The notes: generated by a model not told the origin, from the sequence alone. A DNA stretch of 64,000 bases from an uncultured Candidatus Saccharibacteria bacterium (GCA_964597675.1 CAZQYV010000001.1:81644-145643); one strand, 5' to 3'. Positions 39,555-52,588 are shown, counted from the stretch's first letter. Numbers and translations are program-made.

Positions 39555-40826
39555 ATGACAAATTTTTTCAATAAAATGTTTCTCGTCTTCCAAGATTCTG
39601 TCTTGCGAAAGCGAATATTTTTCACACTCGGAGCATTAGTTTTGTTTCGGGTTCTTGCTGCTATCCCTGTTCCTGGTGTAGATCATGCGGCATTGTCTCG
39701 TTTTTTCACAAATAACGAGTTCTTTGGCTTACTTAACATTTTCTCTGGTGGTGGTCTTTCACAACTTTCGATTGTGATGCTTGGTGTTGGTCCATATATT
39801 ACAGGATCAATCATTATGCAGTTGTTGACCATCATGTCACCTCGACTGAAAGAGATGTACCAAGAGGATGGTGAGGCAGGCAAGAGACGTTTTGCACAAT
39901 ACGGCAGACTTTTGACTGTGCCACTTGCTTTGGTACAAGGTTTTGGTTTTATAAAACTTCTCCAGAGTCAGCAGGTTTTCGCTGCTTTGTCTCCGTTTGC
40001 ATTCGTGGTTAATCTTATCGTTATTACTGCAGGATCAGTACTGCTTATGTGGATCGGTGAGTTGATTTCAGAATATGGTATAGGCAATGGTGTTTCCCTT
40101 ATTATCTTTGCTGGTATTGTTGCTAGTCTTCCTTCATACCTTGGACAGTTAGTTGCCATCTTTGATCCATCACAAATTCCAGTTTATCTTGCCTCAATTA
40201 TTGTAGGAGCAATCGTGGTCATAGGTGTAGTGGTTATAACAGAAGCAGAACGTCCCATCCCTGTAACATATGCAAAACAGGTGCGTGGTAATCGTGTATA
40301 TGGCGGTACATCAACCTATTTGCCACTTCGCATAAATCAAGCGGGTGTTATTCCAATTATCTTTGCTATGTCACTTCTGCTCTTTCCTCAGATGATCGTC
40401 CGTTTCTTGCAAAATGTTGACAACACCACAGTCAAGACAGTTTCAACTTATATGTTGAGTCTTTTATCTAACAGTTGGTTCTATGGCATCGCATATTTCT
40501 TGCTGGTTTTTGTCTTTACTTATTTCTATACAGCAGTGACATTTGATCCAGATCAGATATCTACAAACCTACAGAAGAACGGTGCATTTATCCCAGGTGT
40601 CCGCCCAGGAAAATCGACATCAGAGCATATTGCACGCATTCTTACTCGATTGACACTCGTCGGAGCACTCTTTCTCGGTGTCATTGCTGTATTGCCTCTT
40701 ATCATGAAGGGAATAACTGGTATCCAAGCCCTTTCGATTGGCGGTACAGGACTTTTGATTGTTGTTTCCGTGGTCATCGACCTCATCAAAAAGGTCAACG
40801 CTCAGGTTTCTATCCGAGAGTACTAA
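39555..40826 (+). CDS. secY: preprotein translocase subunit SecY
   Basis: 10-TM SecY family; position after rplO. Confidence 0.95.
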   Translation: MTNFFNKMFLVFQDSVLRKRIFFTLGALVLFRVLAAIPVPGVDHAALSRFFTNNEFFGLLNIFSGGGLSQLSIVMLGVGPYITGSIIMQLLTIMSPRLKEMYQEDGEAGKRRFAQYGRLLTVPLALVQGFGFIKLLQSQQVFAALSPFAFVVNLIVITAGSVLLMWIGELISEYGIGNGVSLIIFAGIVASLPSYLGQLVAIFDPSQIPVYLASIIVGAIVVIGVVVITEAERPIPVTYAKQVRGNRVYGGTSTYLPLRINQAGVIPIIFAMSLLLFPQMIVRFLQNVDNTTVKTVSTYMLSLLSNSWFYGIAYFLLVFVFTYFYTAVTFDPDQISTNLQKNGAFIPGVRPGKSTSEHIARILTRLTLVGALFLGVIAVLPLIMKGITGIQALSIGGTGLLIVVSVVIDLIKKVNAQVSIREY

Positions 40827-40835
40827 TGTTACTTC

Positions 40836-41885
40836 TTATTTATTATCCCAAAACCAGTACTGATTCTTCAGATTCTCACTCAGTCTATATGCGTTCGCAT
40901 GTGATAGAGCCCCAAGATATGATGCGAATGTTTGATTAAAACTTTCTTTTGAAATTATTCCTTTAGTATACGCATTGAATTTATCTCTATGTTTTCTCTC
41001 AATTCGTCTGAGTGTTTTCTTACGTATGAGTCTATGATACGGACGGAGAATATATCCCAGAAAATCAACACTTCCAGATGCTTTCAGTATTTCTACTTTG
41101 TCTGTATGAAGCCGTAATTTGAGACGATTTCCAAGGAACAGGATGATTGGTTTGATTAAATTTTCCAGATATTTTTTGTCGTTCGAGACGATAATAAAAT
41201 CATCGGTGTATCTGCCATAGTGCTCGACTTTCAGTTTTTGCTTCATATACTGATCAAACTCGTTCATATACATATTGGCAAAGAGTTGAGAGGTGAGGTT
41301 GCCAATTGGTACGCCTGTACGAGTAAAAAGGTTGGAATATCCACTCACAAAACTGTCCACAATTTCTCCAATGAGCCATATTACTTCTTTATCCTTTATC
41401 TTTCTTTGGATCAAGGAAAGAAGAATGGAATGATCGATACTGTCAAAGAATTTTCTCACGTCGCATTTGAGAACGTAGCACGCTCTTGTGTAATTTCTTG
41501 AAACTTTACGAATCATACTTTCTGCCACGTCTACTCCTTTGTGTGATCCTTTTTGGATACGACAGGAAAAAGAGGTGGCGATAAATGTCGGCTCAAACAG
41601 GGGATTCAAAATCTGGTAGACCGCATGATGAAGTACTCGGTCCCGAACTGTTGCCTTGTGGATGTGTCGGAGTTTTGGATCACAAATAAAAAAGTCAGTA
41701 TATCCACCGTGTCTGTAAGTCTTGTCCTTCAAATCTCTATGCAGTTGAAAGAGTTCCTGTTCAAGGTTTTTCTCAAACTTCAGAACGTCAGCCTTCTTTC
41801 CTTTGCCGTGTTTGAATTCTTCCCACGCCCAAAACAGGTTCTCTGGTTCTATAATTTTATTAAATAAATTTTTATATACTTTCAT
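40836..41885 (-). CDS. diversity-generating retroelement reverse transcriptase
   Basis: RT motifs including YTDDFII (YxDD) and the DGR-specific IGNLTSQ ([ILV]GxxxSQ) in place of the group II QGxxxSP; the start MKVYKNLFNKI aligns to DGR RT N-termini; the ORF track start at 41954 is probably too long. Confidence 0.8.
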   Translation of the reverse strand: MKVYKNLFNKIIEPENLFWAWEEFKHGKGKKADVLKFEKNLEQELFQLHRDLKDKTYRHGGYTDFFICDPKLRHIHKATVRDRVLHHAVYQILNPLFEPTFIATSFSCRIQKGSHKGVDVAESMIRKVSRNYTRACYVLKCDVRKFFDSIDHSILLSLIQRKIKDKEVIWLIGEIVDSFVSGYSNLFTRTGVPIGNLTSQLFANMYMNEFDQYMKQKLKVEHYGRYTDDFIIVSNDKKYLENLIKPIILFLGNRLKLRLHTDKVEILKASGSVDFLGYILRPYHRLIRKKTLRRIERKHRDKFNAYTKGIISKESFNQTFASYLGALSHANAYRLSENLKNQYWFWDNK

Positions 41886-42237
41886 GAATGATGCAGATAT
41901 ACCGATACTAAAGAAAACATACGAGCTGTACAAGCTCTTCCATGAATACCGCAAGGTAATTTCAAAAGCAAACCGATTTACTATCTATGAACGATGCGAA
42001 AACCTCATTATTGATCTCATTGAATGTTTTTTTGAAGCAGGATACGCCAAAACTGTAAATAAGGCAGTCATTTTGGATAGAGCAAGTGTTCGTCTAAATA
42101 GTTTGCGATTATTTGTTCGTCTGATGAAAGAAACGTATGCAATCGACAATAAAAAATATCTTGCGCTGCAAACAATTATAGATGAGATTGGGAGAATGCT
42201 TGGTGGTTGGATCAGATCAACCGGTCCTACCACTTAA
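41884..42237 (+). CDS. avd: DGR accessory variability determinant (Avd), four-helix-bundle family
   Basis: 117 aa; the C-terminal IDEIGRMLGGWIRS matches bAvd IAEVGRILGSWIAR; its start codon overlaps the RT start on the opposite strand. Confidence 0.75.
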   Translation: MNDADIPILKKTYELYKLFHEYRKVISKANRFTIYERCENLIIDLIECFFEAGYAKTVNKAVILDRASVRLNSLRLFVRLMKETYAIDNKKYLALQTIIDEIGRMLGGWIRSTGPTT

Positions 42238-42242
42238 ACAAA

Positions 42243-42268
42243 AGGTATCCGAATGGATACCTTTTGTG
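42243..42268. terminator. perfect palindromic bidirectional terminator (ends avd on + and the TR transcript on -)
   Basis: aaaaggtatcc-gaat-ggatacctttt. Confidence 0.65.
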
Positions 42269-42299
42269 ATGAAGGGGAGACTTCGGAACGAGACCGGAC

Positions 42300-42408
42300 G
42301 CGGTACCGTAGTTCGCATTGGCATTGTCGAACCAGTTCGTGTCGAACTTGACCTTGCCGTCGTTGAAGTTGAAGTACGGAGCGTGATCGAAGCGAACATC
42401 GGCATCCG
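42300..42408 (-). repeat. DGR template repeat (TR), Asn-codon rich, minus strand
   Basis: The reverse complement aligns to 43700-43800; over a clean core of about 75 nt every difference is an A in TR versus G in VR. Confidence 0.7.
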
Positions 42409-42724
42409 GAATTTGCCCTTGCTCATCCAGAGCACCAGAGCTTGAAAAAGTTTTCTGTTGGAAACAGATCTCAGTCTCACTCTTGAATTTAACTTGGTAG
42501 CACCCGCCATATAGGCTCAGTGGTCCACCTTAAACAAGGGCAAGCAGTATCTCCTTATCACTACACTCTTTTGGAAATCGTAATCTCCAAAACTCTGGTC
42601 GTTTCTCTTATAGAGGGTAAAGAGAAAGAGTTCGGCGACGGCAATCCATAGACGACCGTTCATGAGCCTAGACTCAAAGGAAGTGTACCAGAAAAGATAT
42701 AAATTAAGCAATATTTATGACCTA

Positions 42725-42753
42725 TTGACAAAAAAGCCATTTGGGTGTATAAT
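42725..42753 (+). promoter_or_regulatory. sigma70-like promoter of the DGR target gene (TTGACA, 17 nt spacer, TATAAT)
   Basis: ttgacaaaaaagccatttgggtgtataat. Confidence 0.6.
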
Positions 42754-42788
42754 ATATAGTGGAGGGGCTTTCTGACATTCACTGTTTT

Positions 42789-42835
42789 GAGACGAGCTTT
42801 TTGAGCCTTATTTTAGGACCTAAAAAGCTCGTCTC
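42789..42835 (+). promoter_or_regulatory. 14 bp stem-loop in the about 140 nt 5' UTR of the DGR target gene
   Basis: gagacgagcttttt...aaaaagctcgtctc. Confidence 0.4.
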
Positions 42836-42898
42836 ACAAGGACAAGTCGCAACAAAAGCCGGGGCGAATCTGGTAAATCAGGAAAGGGAGATAACGTC

Positions 42899-43834
42899 AT
42901 GACGACGATTACTCAAGCAACTTCCGGTCAGAAGAAACAGAATAGCCGTTTTCTCGAGGACGCCTTTCAGGCACTCAAAACGGAATTGGAAACCATGTTT
43001 GGTGAACTCGACACCGAGAACGCTCAACGATTCCTCGGTAACGGCGACGAATTCAAAGCCGATGTTCAGAAGGCAGCTCTCGACTCGTTCGGACGCCTGT
43101 CCATCTCGAATCAGTTCGCCAACGAAGAAGTGGAATCGACCTACGGCTACCTCTCGGGCTATCAGAAGCCGAAGGGATTGACCGAGCAGGCCAACCGCTT
43201 GCGTGAACTGTTCTCTGGTGCCGGTTTCGTCAACCTCGATCTGCAAGGCAGAATCGAGAAGGGTGAGATCGCACTGCCAGCATACGCCGAAGGTTGGTCC
43301 GTCATTCCCAACTGGATGAAGAATCCGGAGGCATGGGGCACCTACAACGAGGCACTGCAAAAAGTCCTTGACGCAATCAAGAAGACTCGCAACGGTGCCT
43401 TCTACAACTACCGCGAGGGTCAGATCGGTCCCGAGCGTCTGCGCCAAACGAAGCGTGCGGAGAAATTCTTCCGTGAGCTTTCGGAAGCACAAGGCAATCC
43501 GGATCTCTTAATCGTCCCGACCCAGTTCGGCATCCGCCATCGCGGCCGTTCGGTTCGCCGATCCCGCGAGGTTATGCTGGACAATGGCAACGAGTTCGGA
43601 CTCGGCGCATTCGCAATCGGCATCATGATCCTCGCCCATCCCGAGAGACTGAAAAACGTGGATGATCTGTGGATCGATTGTGCCGGAGACGAATATGCTC
43701 CGGGTGCCGGTGTTCGCTTCGATCGCGCTCCGTACTTCAACTTCAACGACGGCGGGGTCGGGTTCGACGCGGGGTGGACTGGCAGCGCGAGCGGCCGCTA
43801 TGGGTCTTCCTCCGCCTTCCTTCCGCAGCAGTGA
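42899..43834 (+). CDS. DGR target protein (311 aa), GC-rich, with the variable repeat at its C-terminus (C-type-lectin/FGE-like fold suspected); no signal peptide
   Basis: The C-terminus GAGVRFDRAPYFNFNDGGVGFDAGW matches the TR-encoded DADVRFDHAPYFNFNDGKVKFDTNW; ggaaagggag RBS. Confidence 0.7.
   Translation: MTTITQATSGQKKQNSRFLEDAFQALKTELETMFGELDTENAQRFLGNGDEFKADVQKAALDSFGRLSISNQFANEEVESTYGYLSGYQKPKGLTEQANRLRELFSGAGFVNLDLQGRIEKGEIALPAYAEGWSVIPNWMKNPEAWGTYNEALQKVLDAIKKTRNGAFYNYREGQIGPERLRQTKRAEKFFRELSEAQGNPDLLIVPTQFGIRHRGRSVRRSREVMLDNGNEFGLGAFAIGIMILAHPERLKNVDDLWIDCAGDEYAPGAGVRFDRAPYFNFNDGGVGFDAGWTGSASGRYGSSSAFLPQQ
43700..43800 (+). repeat. DGR variable repeat (VR)
   Basis: See the TR entry; the 3' third has diverged with non-adenine changes as well. 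Confidence 0.65.
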
Positions 43835-44027
43835 TCGCTTGCTCCTCGAATTCTTGAGTCTTTTGATTTCTTTTCTCTTGATTCTTGAATTCGCCGGCAA
43901 AATTCGGGCTACTCACAACGTGTGGGTGGCCCGATTTTCTTTTGTATAAAATTAATTATAGGGATTTTTTTGATAGATTTGCTATACTACTTGGTATAGC
44001 ATTTGTTTTATATTTTAACCGTATTTT

Positions 44028-44615
44028 ATGTCTCCTCATACATTTGTGTTTATCGGACGTTCTGGTTGTGGTAAAGGTACTCAGGCGGGTTTGCTCATGC
44101 AGCAGATTGGAGAGAAGAAAGTCGGTGAACCAATTTTTTATCTTGAAACAGGTCAGAAATTTCGCGATTTTATTGGAGGCGCTGGATACACAAACACTCT
44201 CGCACGCACCATCCAAGAAGCCGGAGGACTCCAGCCATCTTTTTTGGCGGTTTGGATGTGGTCAAATATCTTTATTGACAAATTGACTGATAAGGATCAT
44301 TTGGTTATTGATGGTACTCCACGCAAACTTGGTGAGGCAATTATTTTCACCGAAGCAATGAAGTTTTACAATCGAAGACCGATTGTTATATATATCAATG
44401 TATCTCGTGAGTGGTCAGAGGCACGGCTATCAGATCGGCATCGGTCTGACGATATGAGTGAAGTCATAAAAAATCGCCTTGATTGGTTTGACACGGATGT
44501 CTTTCCGGCGGTAGAGTACTTCAAGACAAACCCCGATGTCCAGTTTCTCGATATAAACGGTGAACGAGCGATTGAGGAGATTCAGGATGATATTTTAGAA
44601 AAATTAAAAATTTAA
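44028..44615 (+). CDS. adk: adenylate kinase
   Basis: P-loop GRSGCGKGTQ; normal position after secY, displaced here by the DGR. Confidence 0.8.
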   Translation: MSPHTFVFIGRSGCGKGTQAGLLMQQIGEKKVGEPIFYLETGQKFRDFIGGAGYTNTLARTIQEAGGLQPSFLAVWMWSNIFIDKLTDKDHLVIDGTPRKLGEAIIFTEAMKFYNRRPIVIYINVSREWSEARLSDRHRSDDMSEVIKNRLDWFDTDVFPAVEYFKTNPDVQFLDINGERAIEEIQDDILEKLKI

Positions 44616-44706
44616 AAATCAAAAAGGAAAATTAATATACATTTTTACTTTTTACTTTTGATTTTTCATTTTTAAATTGGTGAAAATCTAGGTTAAATGA
44701 TTATCT
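44616..44706. repeat. third, more diverged copy of the palindromic intergenic element
   Basis: aaaaatcaaaaaggaaaattaat...ttttacttttgatttttcatttttaaatt. Confidence 0.5.
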
Positions 44707-45474
44707 ATGATAACAATAAAGACAAAGGAGGAGATTGAAATACTAAATGAGGGCGGTCGCCGTCATGCTTTTATCTTGTCTCAGGTTGCGGAAAAAGTTG
44801 CTCCTGGTGTTTCTACTGCTTCGCTCGAGGATTATGCTAGAGAATTGATTAAGGAGGGCGGTGATCTTGCTGCGTTTTTAAACTACACACCACGTGGTGC
44901 ACGCCGTGCGTATCCAGCGGCCTTGTGTGTATCGGTTAATGATGAAATCGTCCACGGTATTCCAAATGAGGATCCAAAAATCTTACAGGAAGGAGATGTT
45001 GTTGCGCTTGACCTCGGGCTAATTCACCAAGGACTTATTACTGACAGTGCAATTACGGTAGGAGTTGGGGCAATTACTCCGGAGGAAAGGAAACTGATTG
45101 AACACACAAAAGAAGCGTTATTTATTGGTATTAAACAAGCGCGGGGAGGTGGTCGGATCGGGGACATTGGACATGCAATCGAGTCATTTGTCCGCCCATT
45201 GGGCTATGGGCTCTGCGAGGGGCTCGCAGGGCACGGTGTTGGCTACAAAGTGCACGAGGACCCCTTTGTACCAAACGAAGGGCGTAGGGGCTCTGGGGAC
45301 CTTTTGAAGCCAGGTATGGTTATTGCAATCGAGCCCATGCTCACCCTCGGTACAGATAGGATTGTCCTCTCTGCAGATGGGTATACATACAAAACAGAGG
45401 ATGGTTCAAAGTCGGCACATTTCGAACACACCATTGCTATTACAGACTCCGACCCTATCATACTTACAAAATAA
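44707..45474 (+). CDS. map: methionine aminopeptidase type I
   Basis: MAP metal-ligand pattern; 255 aa. Confidence 0.9.
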   Translation: MITIKTKEEIEILNEGGRRHAFILSQVAEKVAPGVSTASLEDYARELIKEGGDLAAFLNYTPRGARRAYPAALCVSVNDEIVHGIPNEDPKILQEGDVVALDLGLIHQGLITDSAITVGVGAITPEERKLIEHTKEALFIGIKQARGGGRIGDIGHAIESFVRPLGYGLCEGLAGHGVGYKVHEDPFVPNEGRRGSGDLLKPGMVIAIEPMLTLGTDRIVLSADGYTYKTEDGSKSAHFEHTIAITDSDPIILTK

Positions 45475-52090: not shown

Positions 52091-52193
52091 ATACAGTCCC
52101 TCGAATCCCTCGGGACACTCGACTCGTAAGTACCATCTTGTTTTTAGGTGGTTTACCACGAGCGAGTTCCAAGTAATCTTGGGACGAGTCGAG

Positions 52194-52588
52194 TGGAAGT
52201 GGCGGCATCGAAGCCGCGTCCATAGAAGGAACTAAAATGTGTCTACAGCGTGTAGTTTGTTTTATATTTAATCATCTATACTATGTAACAAACAAAATGT
52301 ATAAGTGACGATTCTCAATGTTTCAAACGATGAGTCGAGACACACCCATGTTCTAGCTAAAAATATATCAATCAACCTCCCGTATTAGCGTCAGGGAAGC
52401 GACCGTCTCCTTGGCGTCGGCTTATGCTCGAGCGAAAGAGAAAGCAAAGTCATTCATACTAAAGTATGGTGATGTTGCTTTTGAAGCTACAGTATTTGCA
52501 TGTAGGCTTTTCTGTACCGTTTTAGGAGAGCACAGAACTCCGCGTTGCGCAGATCAATTCTTTTCTATGTCAAAACCTGTCACCCCCG
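52194..52588 (-). ncRNA. ssrA: tmRNA (ssrA), one-piece, about 395 nt
   Basis: Immediately downstream of smpB; the 5' GGGGGTG pairs with the 3' CACTTCC-A giving a G3-U70 wobble and an A73 discriminator; T-arm GCGGC-TTCGAT-GCCGC; candidate tag frame from about nt 88 ending ...NDFAFSFARA-stop; the exact tag start is unresolved. Confidence 0.6.

Follow-up and report, generated by a model that had tools for sequence, protein, structure and literature searches.

A diversity-generating retroelement recently inserted between secY and adk of a Candidatus Saccharibacteria bacterium, with a template and variable repeat that look non-cognate at the 3' end

Between secY (39555-40826, + strand) and adk (44028-44615, + strand) of an uncultured Candidatus Saccharibacteria bacterium lie the four parts of a diversity-generating retroelement (DGR): a reverse transcriptase (RT), the Avd protein, a template repeat (TR) and a target gene that bears the variable repeat (VR). 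A Pfam search confirms secY and adk as the flanks, and all positions refer to the window, the whole analysed stretch of 64,000 nt (GCA_964597675.1 CAZQYV010000001.1:81644-145643). A sequence-only reading of this stretch had proposed a complete DGR here, and each part was recovered at, or within ~20 nt of, the place that it gave. The locus has the following layout:

40827..43950, no strand: inserted block relative to the empty site; right boundary approximate, within ~15 nt
40836..41885, - strand: DGR reverse transcriptase, 349 aa (Pfam, PDB match, motifs)
41884..42237, + strand: Avd, 117 aa (Pfam bAvd, PDB matches)
42238..42267, no strand: 13-bp hairpin, likely a bidirectional terminator (folding, 27 of 29 loci)
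42281..42410, - strand: TR, 130 nt, with core 42410-42336 and tail 42335-42281 (inverted-repeat alignment)
42411..42676, - strand: structured 5' domain of the TR RNA, ~266 nt (20-locus alignment)
42682..42711, - strand: promoter-like site predicted to serve the TR RNA, TTGCTT-18-TACACT (20-locus alignment)
42725..42753, + strand: target promoter, TTGACA-17-TATAAT (sigma-70-type consensus, 12 of 12 matches)
42785..42839, + strand: long hairpin in the target 5' leader (22 loci)
42899..43834, + strand: target (variable protein), 311 aa (C-type lectin fold model)
43699..43773, + strand: VR core, 75 nt (ungapped alignment with TR)
43774..43828, + strand: VR tail, 55 nt, whose last 30 nt hold the equivalent of the initiation of mutagenic homing (IMH) site (ungapped alignment with TR)
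43836..43893, + strand: YTTGA array and imperfect hairpin (conserved downstream of VR)
43904..43934, + strand: intrinsic terminator of the target, where the cassette ends on the right (folding, z -4.5; related GGTTATCCACA-type hairpin in other loci)

The TR and VR form an inverted repeat of 130 nt, 42281-42410 against 43699-43828, the latter being the last 130 nt of the target. The earlier placement of the TR at 42300-42408 thus found the inverted repeat but fell short of its full extent. Within the repeat the two parts differ sharply in their substitution spectrum. In the core (blastn E 1e-22 within the window) 10 of the 18 TR adenines are changed, all of them to G, and none of the 57 non-A sites (Fisher test, p = 5e-8). 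The changed sites (43704, 43710, 43725, 43754-5, 43760-1, 43769 and 43772-3) fall in the codons GAT, GAT, CAC, AAG, AAG, ACG and AAC, exactly the seven that the sequence-only reading had named as carrying A in TR and G in VR. Eight core A sites are unchanged, among them a run of six adenines (YFNFND). In the tail, by contrast, 7 of the 11 A sites and 18 of the 44 non-A sites are changed, with no enrichment at adenines (p = 0.2), a spectrum different from that of the core (p = 3e-8); the entire 130 nt thus hold 17 mismatches at A and 18 at non-A. The boundary between the two regimes lies inside a single codon, which is AAC in TR and GGG in VR. The TR tail ends in the family-typical CCGAAG, and the TR encodes ..DADVRFDHAPYFNFNDGKVKFDTNWFDNANANYGTASGLVPK.

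The anomaly of the tail is apparent on comparison with homologous loci, 80 of which were fetched (L002-L085) and mapped for RT, Avd, target and TR. The 31 other family pairs compared show 0-2 non-A mismatches in the tail against 18 in the window, while their cores nearly all show 0-2 against 0 in the window (the core of L012 has eight, probably from a mis-registered slice). The last 27 nt are identical between TR and VR within each of the other loci, though different between loci; the window pair differs at 11 positions there and lacks the near-identity of IMH and IMH*. The element stays a family member in spite of this, but the difference speaks against a functional pair at present. The VR tail is therefore not templated by the resident TR, and the pair looks non-cognate at its 3' end. 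Across lineages the TR core is 96-99% identical while the corresponding RT genes are only ~69% identical, and heterologous combinations of a TR with the VR of another locus give 1-4 core mismatches; the window TR against the VRs of other loci yields core/tail non-A mismatches of, e.g. 1/8, 2/13 and 4/17. With 0/18, the window pair looks like such a heterologous pair. As the TR core is near-invariant across lineages, a clean core is no proof of templating by the resident TR. The core is thus, as the earlier note had it, a signature of adenine mutagenesis, written by a TR of this family, but not necessarily by the resident one. Normal rewriting by the resident TR would have homogenised the tail first, and the tail mismatch hence speaks against it; the doubt that the earlier note had voiced over present activity, citing the diverged 3' part with its non-A changes, is justified.

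The nearest VR tails all come from loci that lack a DGR: the VR tail and downstream array are 85% identical over 107 nt to those of one such family member, L085, whereas the gene bodies are only 66% identical. No second DGR, RT, target or TR-like sequence was found in the 64-kb window, and exact-pattern scans for a cognate partner of either tail gave no match in JGI metagenomes or IMG/VR. Two other origins of the mismatched tails were considered and rejected. Long neutral divergence after inactivation would have hit the synonymous sites of the core too, and inversion by TR/VR recombination would swap tails and flanks rather than create divergence.

The cassette as a whole is a recent acquisition. 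Empty-site relatives from other samples (L089, L090 and L091) were reached via SecY proteins at least 90% identical, and at the nucleotide level they match the window at 94% in secY and 96% in adk. In L089 and L091 secY is followed by 91 nt and then adk; L090 ends within adk and has the same intergenic sequence. Homology with these relatives stops at the secY stop codon (40826) and restarts at ~43950-43983, and their secY terminator hairpin AACGCCCCACTCGGGGCGTT is gone from the window, replaced by the cassette. The inserted block extends from 9 nt past the RT stop codon to just past the target terminator and holds the DGR only; no target-site duplication or terminal repeat is visible at the insertion. 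secY and adk are likewise adjacent in a more distant genome (L017), which together with the close relatives marks the filled state as derived, and the empty site in relatives that are 94-96% identical marks the ~3.1-kb cassette as a recent insertion. Thus, as the sequence-only reading had surmised from the usual adjacency of the two genes, the DGR is inserted between secY and adk, and the comparison adds that this happened recently and en bloc. The secY stop and the convergent RT stop are only 9 nt apart (40826-40838); with the terminator lost, read-through from secY would run antisense into the RT gene. The L017 genome itself carries a DGR-less target gene 2 kb downstream of secY-adk-map.

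Both proteins of the element appear to be intact. The RT open reading frame (ORF; 40836-41885, -) retains PIGNLTSQ, RYTDDF and SFSCR, matches Pfam RVT_1 with E 4e-24 and has as its closest solved relative the bRT of Bordetella phage BPP-1 (8ub7_A, E 8e-47, residues 3-343, i.e. full length); in the PDB comparison the top-scoring RT from a group II intron trails well behind (2.5e-25). It thus displays the features that define membership in the DGR RTs, namely the motif 4 [I/L/V]GxxxSQ, YxDD and DGR RTs as the closest relatives. In NCBIfam it falls below the cutoff of each of the group II, retron and Drt models, and an identity as a group II intron was rejected (TIGR04416 reaches 164 of the 300 bits required, and the window has no Rfam match to such an intron). 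Avd (41884-42237, +) matches Pfam bAvd with 61.5 bits (cutoff 40) and, in the PDB, 4dwl and 8ub7_B; its top match in NCBIfam is DivGenRetAVD, at 72.4 bits under the cutoff of 80. Among the columns conserved in the family, the RT departs at 2 of 111 (29 RTs) and Avd at 0 of 32. The start codons of the two genes overlap head to head (CATG, 41883-41886), as they do in most family loci, and so the promoter of each must lie inside the other gene or further off. The RT with IGNLTSQ and YTDDF and the divergent 117-aa Avd of the earlier note are thereby both borne out.

The target, of 311 aa, has an N-terminal helical region followed in its C-terminal half by a C-type lectin fold in the structure model, and the VR, at the end of the ORF, is predicted to lie within this scaffold. 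The protein is without a signal peptide and matches no Pfam or NCBIfam family at E <= 0.01, including FGE-sulfatase and DUF1566. Its resemblance to proteins that adopt a C-type lectin fold is at the fold level only, and no relative of its N-terminal helical region was identified. Profile searches and fold prediction, which the earlier note had put forward as checks, thus matched RVT_1 and bAvd and yielded the C-type lectin model of the target C-terminus. A single sequence of the window target is present among 15 billion proteins. The GC content of the target is 57% against 41% in its flanks, and a similar difference of ~16 points recurs across the family (mean 58% in targets against 42% in flanks over 80 loci, the DGR-less ones included), while the RT genes equal or exceed the flanks in AT content. 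Horizontal transfer of a GC-rich target was accordingly rejected, as the +16-point excess is present in 80/80 loci and the RT is AT-rich like the flanks. Likewise rejected was an intron or insertion in the target, which had been suggested by ~1345-nt matches in several loci; these proved to be a tblastn join of the VR and the downstream TR.

Members of this target family are numerous in Patescibacteria (1835 matches of ~300 aa each), and the homologous loci all come from metagenome-assembled genomes (MAGs) of Patescibacteria type, with only five target relatives among 2.9 million viral contigs. The loci lie in unrelated genomic neighborhoods. About 43 of the 80 have a TR-(avd)-RT cassette, always in the order TR, antisense Avd, RT; the target is mostly upstream in direct orientation but inverted, as in the window, in six (L020, L024, L030, L037, L063 and L071). 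The repeat extends to the stop codon, and in every case its final codon reads AAG in TR but CAG in VR. In 37 non-redundant pairs, 700 of the 750 TR/VR mismatches (93%) are at TR adenines, of which 416 are changed to G, 122 to C and 162 to T (A-to-G 59-63%), and A-specific mismatches in the same arrangement are found in >35 loci. The naive probability of the all-A-to-G pattern of the window under the family spectrum is 0.009. An origin of the pattern in some non-DGR process was considered and rejected, since other lineages show the changes D>G, H>R and K>G at these codons too. Roughly half of the family targets lie more than 7 kb from any TR, Avd or RT and yet keep the leader and the YTTGA array described below (e.g. 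L007, L016, L017, L025, L028, L029, L032, L036, L040, L041, L043 and L085); these may be orphans or be served in trans. Multi-target loci also exist (L080, L081 and L050).

The comparison of near-identical members indicates that the DGR family is active in nature. In a cluster from Zambryskibacteria (P0107, with P0129, P0131, P0132 and P0133) identical gene bodies carry different VRs, and P0132 is a mosaic, with the core of P0107 and the 3' part of P0131, this 3' part being its sole difference from P0107; confinement of the change to this part points to conversion anchored at the 3' end. Another member of the cluster, P0133, runs from the VR into the TR tail and antisense avd, either as a VR/TR deletion recombinant or through assembly collapse. 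In a Nomurabacteria locus (L004, 7345-7513) the repeat copy that occupies the place of the TR has behind it, in one assembly, the downstream sequence of the VR type (CAGAGCTGATTC) and not that of the TR type, probably through repeat-induced misassembly at the contig end.

Most of the seemingly unusual features noted by the sequence-only reading hence turn out to be ordinary: the GC-rich target and the excess of A-to-G changes are family-wide traits, a target without a signal peptide is typical of DGRs of the candidate phyla radiation (CPR) (PMC8144416), and a divergent Avd between TR and RT is the norm for the clade (architecture B3). What is unusual is a TR/VR pair with a clean core and a diverged tail.

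The non-coding parts of the cassette show strong conservation. The predicted TR RNA begins with a structured 5' domain that is conserved in 20/20 aligned loci (L008, L010, L013, L024 and others), for which RNAalifold gives 61 consensus pairs, 42 of them with compensatory changes; 3' of the TR only ~13 nt remain before a terminator hairpin. Within the 5' domain a hairpin at 42599-42538 (ACCAGAGU-stem-AGAGUG) resembles that of the Rfam motif RT-7 (RF03028). The window scores 26 bits (E 3e-4) against a gathering threshold of 116.8, with the first hairpin only matched and 143/191 model positions missing, and 0/11 family loci reach this threshold. An ORF at 42517-42711 (-) and a mini-ORF after the GGAGATACTGCTTG box were considered as coding and rejected, as variation tracks base-pairing and not codons; the region is thus treated as RNA, and the ORF is probably not coding. 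A TCTCCCC box at 42280-42274 (TR strand), conserved as TCTCYCC in nearly every locus, precedes the hairpin at 42238-42267 (-12.7 kcal/mol, z -9.3), which is flanked by the avd stop and the 3' end of the TR and has T-runs on both strands. A hairpin is present at the equivalent place in 27/29 loci with sequences differing by locus, and the one in the window is a likely terminator of the TR RNA as well as of the avd mRNA. The promoter-like site of the TR RNA, whose -10-like TATAMT box aligns in 20/20 loci, stands back to back with the target promoter, and promoter boxes like that of the target are found upstream of the leader in many family loci.

The target 5' leader itself (42754-42898, +) is conserved in ~50/60 family loci, including members without a nearby DGR, and contains a GTTCTTTGA-like box and a long hairpin (TGAGACGAGC..GCTCGTCTCA; 23 pairs, 19 compensatory, in 22 loci), after which come a small hairpin, CCGRGCGAWTCYGG, and the sequence GGAGATAACGTCATG, whose conservation is unusually high; the leader has no match in Rfam. 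Downstream of the stop codon about six YTTGA motifs are found in every family locus examined, including the window, with 87 of 112 spacings at 7-9 nt against ~15 expected by shuffling. The imperfect hairpin of this array (CGAATTC..GAGTC / GATTC..GAATTCG) is thermodynamically weak on its own (z -1.1). The array is the candidate target-recognition element. A conserved UCAAG in the 5' domain of the TR RNA is complementary to the CTTGA of the array over 5 nt; any role for this pairing is pure speculation. An RNA of another kind, the Rfam LOOT RNA (RF03000), scores above gathering near the DGR cassettes of four family loci (L024 8066-8185 and L037 8050-8178, both ~180 nt downstream of the target; L010 8312-8431 and L074 5529-5651, both on the - strand), with none in the window, where the sole Rfam matches are a transfer-messenger RNA (52191-52587, -) and two tRNAs. 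In the flanking operon S5 is followed after 4 nt by L15 with no intervening L30 (38545-39550), which fits a CPR/Patescibacteria genome.

Taken together, these observations lead to the proposal, which we regard as reasonably likely, that the element is a DGR of the CPR B3 type, gained en bloc and with intact machinery, whose TR/VR pair is non-cognate and which is probably impaired on this target. Under this proposal a minus-strand non-coding RNA of ~440 nt would run from ~42676 to ~42238, comprising the 266-nt 5' domain, the 130-nt TR, the TCTCCCC box and the terminator hairpin. The RT-Avd complex would copy the TR into complementary DNA (cDNA) with misincorporation opposite adenines, and, by analogy with BPP-1 and from the conserved anatomy, replacement would be anchored at the VR 3' end beside the YTTGA array and its hairpin. 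The unit from the RT stop to the target terminator (3.1 kb) was inserted after the split from the 94-96% identical relatives, displacing the secY terminator. Recombination at the near-invariant 75-nt core, as the simplest route, would have joined the target end and the TR of different lineages, with no full-length 3'-anchored retrohoming since. In BPP-1 and Legionella the IMH and the adjacent stem-loop matter for efficient homing (PMC5758913; PMC12875486), and going by the mismatched tails canonical 3'-anchored homing is probably impaired on the window target.

Four points weigh against this proposal. It is in BPP-1 and Legionella that homing is known to need a matching IMH, and this would extend to the CPR family by analogy. 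In a dead element one would not expect protein and RNA machinery free of signs of decay, except where the insertion is very recent or another target is served. No donor lineage carrying either tail was found in the JGI metagenome and IMG/VR scans. Finally, the TR-bearing segment is supported by the MAG contig alone: two independent Logan contigs of run SRR12762304 match both junctions at 100% identity, the first covering secY-RT (window 39636-42216) and the second, with a VR identical to that of the window, covering target-adk (42727-44985), leaving the 510 nt of 42217-42726 between them.

The last point bears on the tail mismatch directly, for 42217-42726, or part of it, could have been threaded into the contig from the DGR of a co-occurring relative via shared k-mers, in which case the strain's true TR would agree with the VR tail, its own tail reading ..TATGGGTCTTCCTCCGCCTTCCTTCCGAAG. 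The Logan contigs of the same run stop and start exactly at the edges of this segment, different species share a near-identical TR core and near-identical parts of the 5' domain, and collapse-like VR/TR fusions are seen in other assemblies (P0133, L004). Such an artefact nevertheless requires two crossovers at shared long k-mers, the left of which would need a very close strain, the lineages being only 70-80% identical outside the TR core; moreover, the nearest relatives of the segment belong to the same lineages as those of its neighboring segments, and the MAG contig is continuous over 191 kb. We therefore rate it as improbable. Should the mismatch be real, the target could be an orphan, with the RT-Avd-TR serving a cognate target that lies elsewhere in the genome, beyond the window, and has a VR tail matching GGTACCGCGTCCGGTCTCGTTCCGCAG. 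This would account for the intact machinery, and is in keeping with the frequency of family targets lacking a DGR within 7 kb (about half, so that trans action or orphans are common), the existence of multi-target loci (L080, L081, L050) and documented non-adjacent DGR targets (PMC5758913). It is at odds with the lack of a second target, RT or TR-like sequence in the window and of any matching sequence in JGI metagenomes or IMG/VR, with the prevalence of single-target DGRs in the CPR (PMC5758913) and with the arrival of the cassette as one block including this very target, which together make it quite unlikely. Another alternative, that there is no DGR signature and the TR-like sequence is a duplicated gene fragment under ordinary mutational decay, can appeal to the lack of A-enrichment in the 55-nt tail (7/11 against 18/44, p = 0.2), but is refuted, with next to no probability left to it, by the core (10/18 A against 0/57 non-A, p = 5e-8), by the intact bRT homologue and Avd that the repeat adjoins, by the recurrence of the A-specific arrangement in >35 loci and by the embedding of the repeat in a conserved structured RNA.

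A further alternative keeps the element active on the window target in a truncated mode, wherein cDNA integrates only at the 75-nt core and the tail evolves freely. This would involve homology-dependent annealing, e.g. at the replication fork, without a matching IMH; in its favor, reconstitution in E. coli suggests an integration step that is replication-linked, exonuclease-sensitive and incompletely understood (PMC12875486), the core is changed at adenines only (10/18 A, 0/57 others), and the RT, Avd, TR RNA and downstream array are all intact. However, any family TR would give an equally clean core, the natural partial conversions in the family are anchored 3' and not 5', and 31/31 other pairs keep matching tails. 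Further, the change of all ten sites to G with six adenines (YFNFND) untouched is unlike repeated randomization, and only a single VR sequence of the target is found among 15 billion proteins, leaving the truncated mode unlikely. More broadly, the CPR B3 DGR family may follow a logic unlike that of BPP-1, including priming from the 5' domain, an array-based mark, cassette mobility and core-only homing, an idea that we hold to be unlikely. The 5' domain of the TR RNA and the scant 3' spacer would then reflect priming and RT-Avd recruitment from the 5' domain, the 8-nt-periodic YTTGA array may act as the mark of the recipient, 3.1-kb cassettes may enter new chromosomal sites (an essential operon in this case) without a recombinase of their own, and this locus with its heterologous tail could represent a natural experiment in IMH-independent internal homing limited to the core.

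Returning to the proposal of an en bloc gain with a non-cognate TR/VR pair, the locus is of interest in several respects. The clean comparison of filled and empty sites at 94-96% flank identity indicates that an entire DGR, including its target, can be gained as a compact unit. The host genome is streamlined, and the unit entered its spc operon at an intergenic region that had held a terminator. Large surveys describe the dispersal of DGRs as strongly constrained. An intact DGR with tails of different lineages amounts to a natural test of the need for IMH/IMH* identity in CPR elements. It also holds a warning for automated DGR calling, as with a near-invariant TR core an A-only core is no proof that the neighboring TR is cognate. 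Lastly, the structured 5' domain, the leader hairpin and the YTTGA array offer testable leads on the most abundant and least studied clade of DGRs.

Among known systems the element is closest to the B3 DGRs of the CPR, the TR-(avd)-RT architecture to which 90% of the DGRs in the CPR belong (Wu et al. 2018, PMC5758913). Both show the order TR, opposite-strand avd, RT without further accessory genes, one target that bears its VR at the C-terminus and lacks a signal peptide, transmembrane segment or known domain, adenine-specific mismatches (in the window those of the 75-nt core) and a small AT-rich CPR host genome; CPR (clade 2) targets typically lack transmembrane, signal or recognizable domains (Roux et al. 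2021, PMC8144416). By its host context and architecture, rather than an RT tree, the element would belong to clade 2 of the latter survey. It departs from most B3 DGRs in the inversion of its target relative to the TR, a minority arrangement in the family (6 of ~43 loci), and from B3 DGRs in general in a VR tail that is untemplated by the resident TR and in its location between secY and adk with an empty site documented in close relatives.

The BPP-1 DGR (mtd-avd-TR-brt) shares with it a full-length homologous RT (E 8e-47), an Avd homologous to Bbp7, A-specific TR/VR substitutions (in the window within the core), a VR at the C-terminus of a C-type lectin fold and a conserved element downstream of the VR. 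However, in the window Avd is on the opposite strand, the element is cellular and not phage-borne, and the target is apparently non-secreted. Whereas BPP-1 has a 140-nt 3' spacer with a priming adenosine, the window has a structured RNA of ~266 nt 5' of the TR and just ~13 nt and a terminator 3' of it; in place of the GC14 and GC-rich stem-loop downstream of the BPP-1 VR stands the AT-rich YTTGA array with its imperfect hairpin. Unlike in BPP-1, the IMH and IMH* equivalents of the window's family are identical except for one terminal A/C. At the level of the target, Treponema TvpA (2y3c), the C-terminal domain of Legionella Lcl/DUF1566 (8q4e) and that of Bdellovibrio Bd2740 (8oks) are 7-8% identical to the window protein. 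On the RNA side, the RT-7 motif, whose first stem-loop matches the hairpin in the 5' domain of the TR RNA, adjoins RT genes as that hairpin does, and a role in retrons or DGRs has been suspected for RT-associated motifs, RT-7 among them (Weinberg et al. 2017, PMC5737381).

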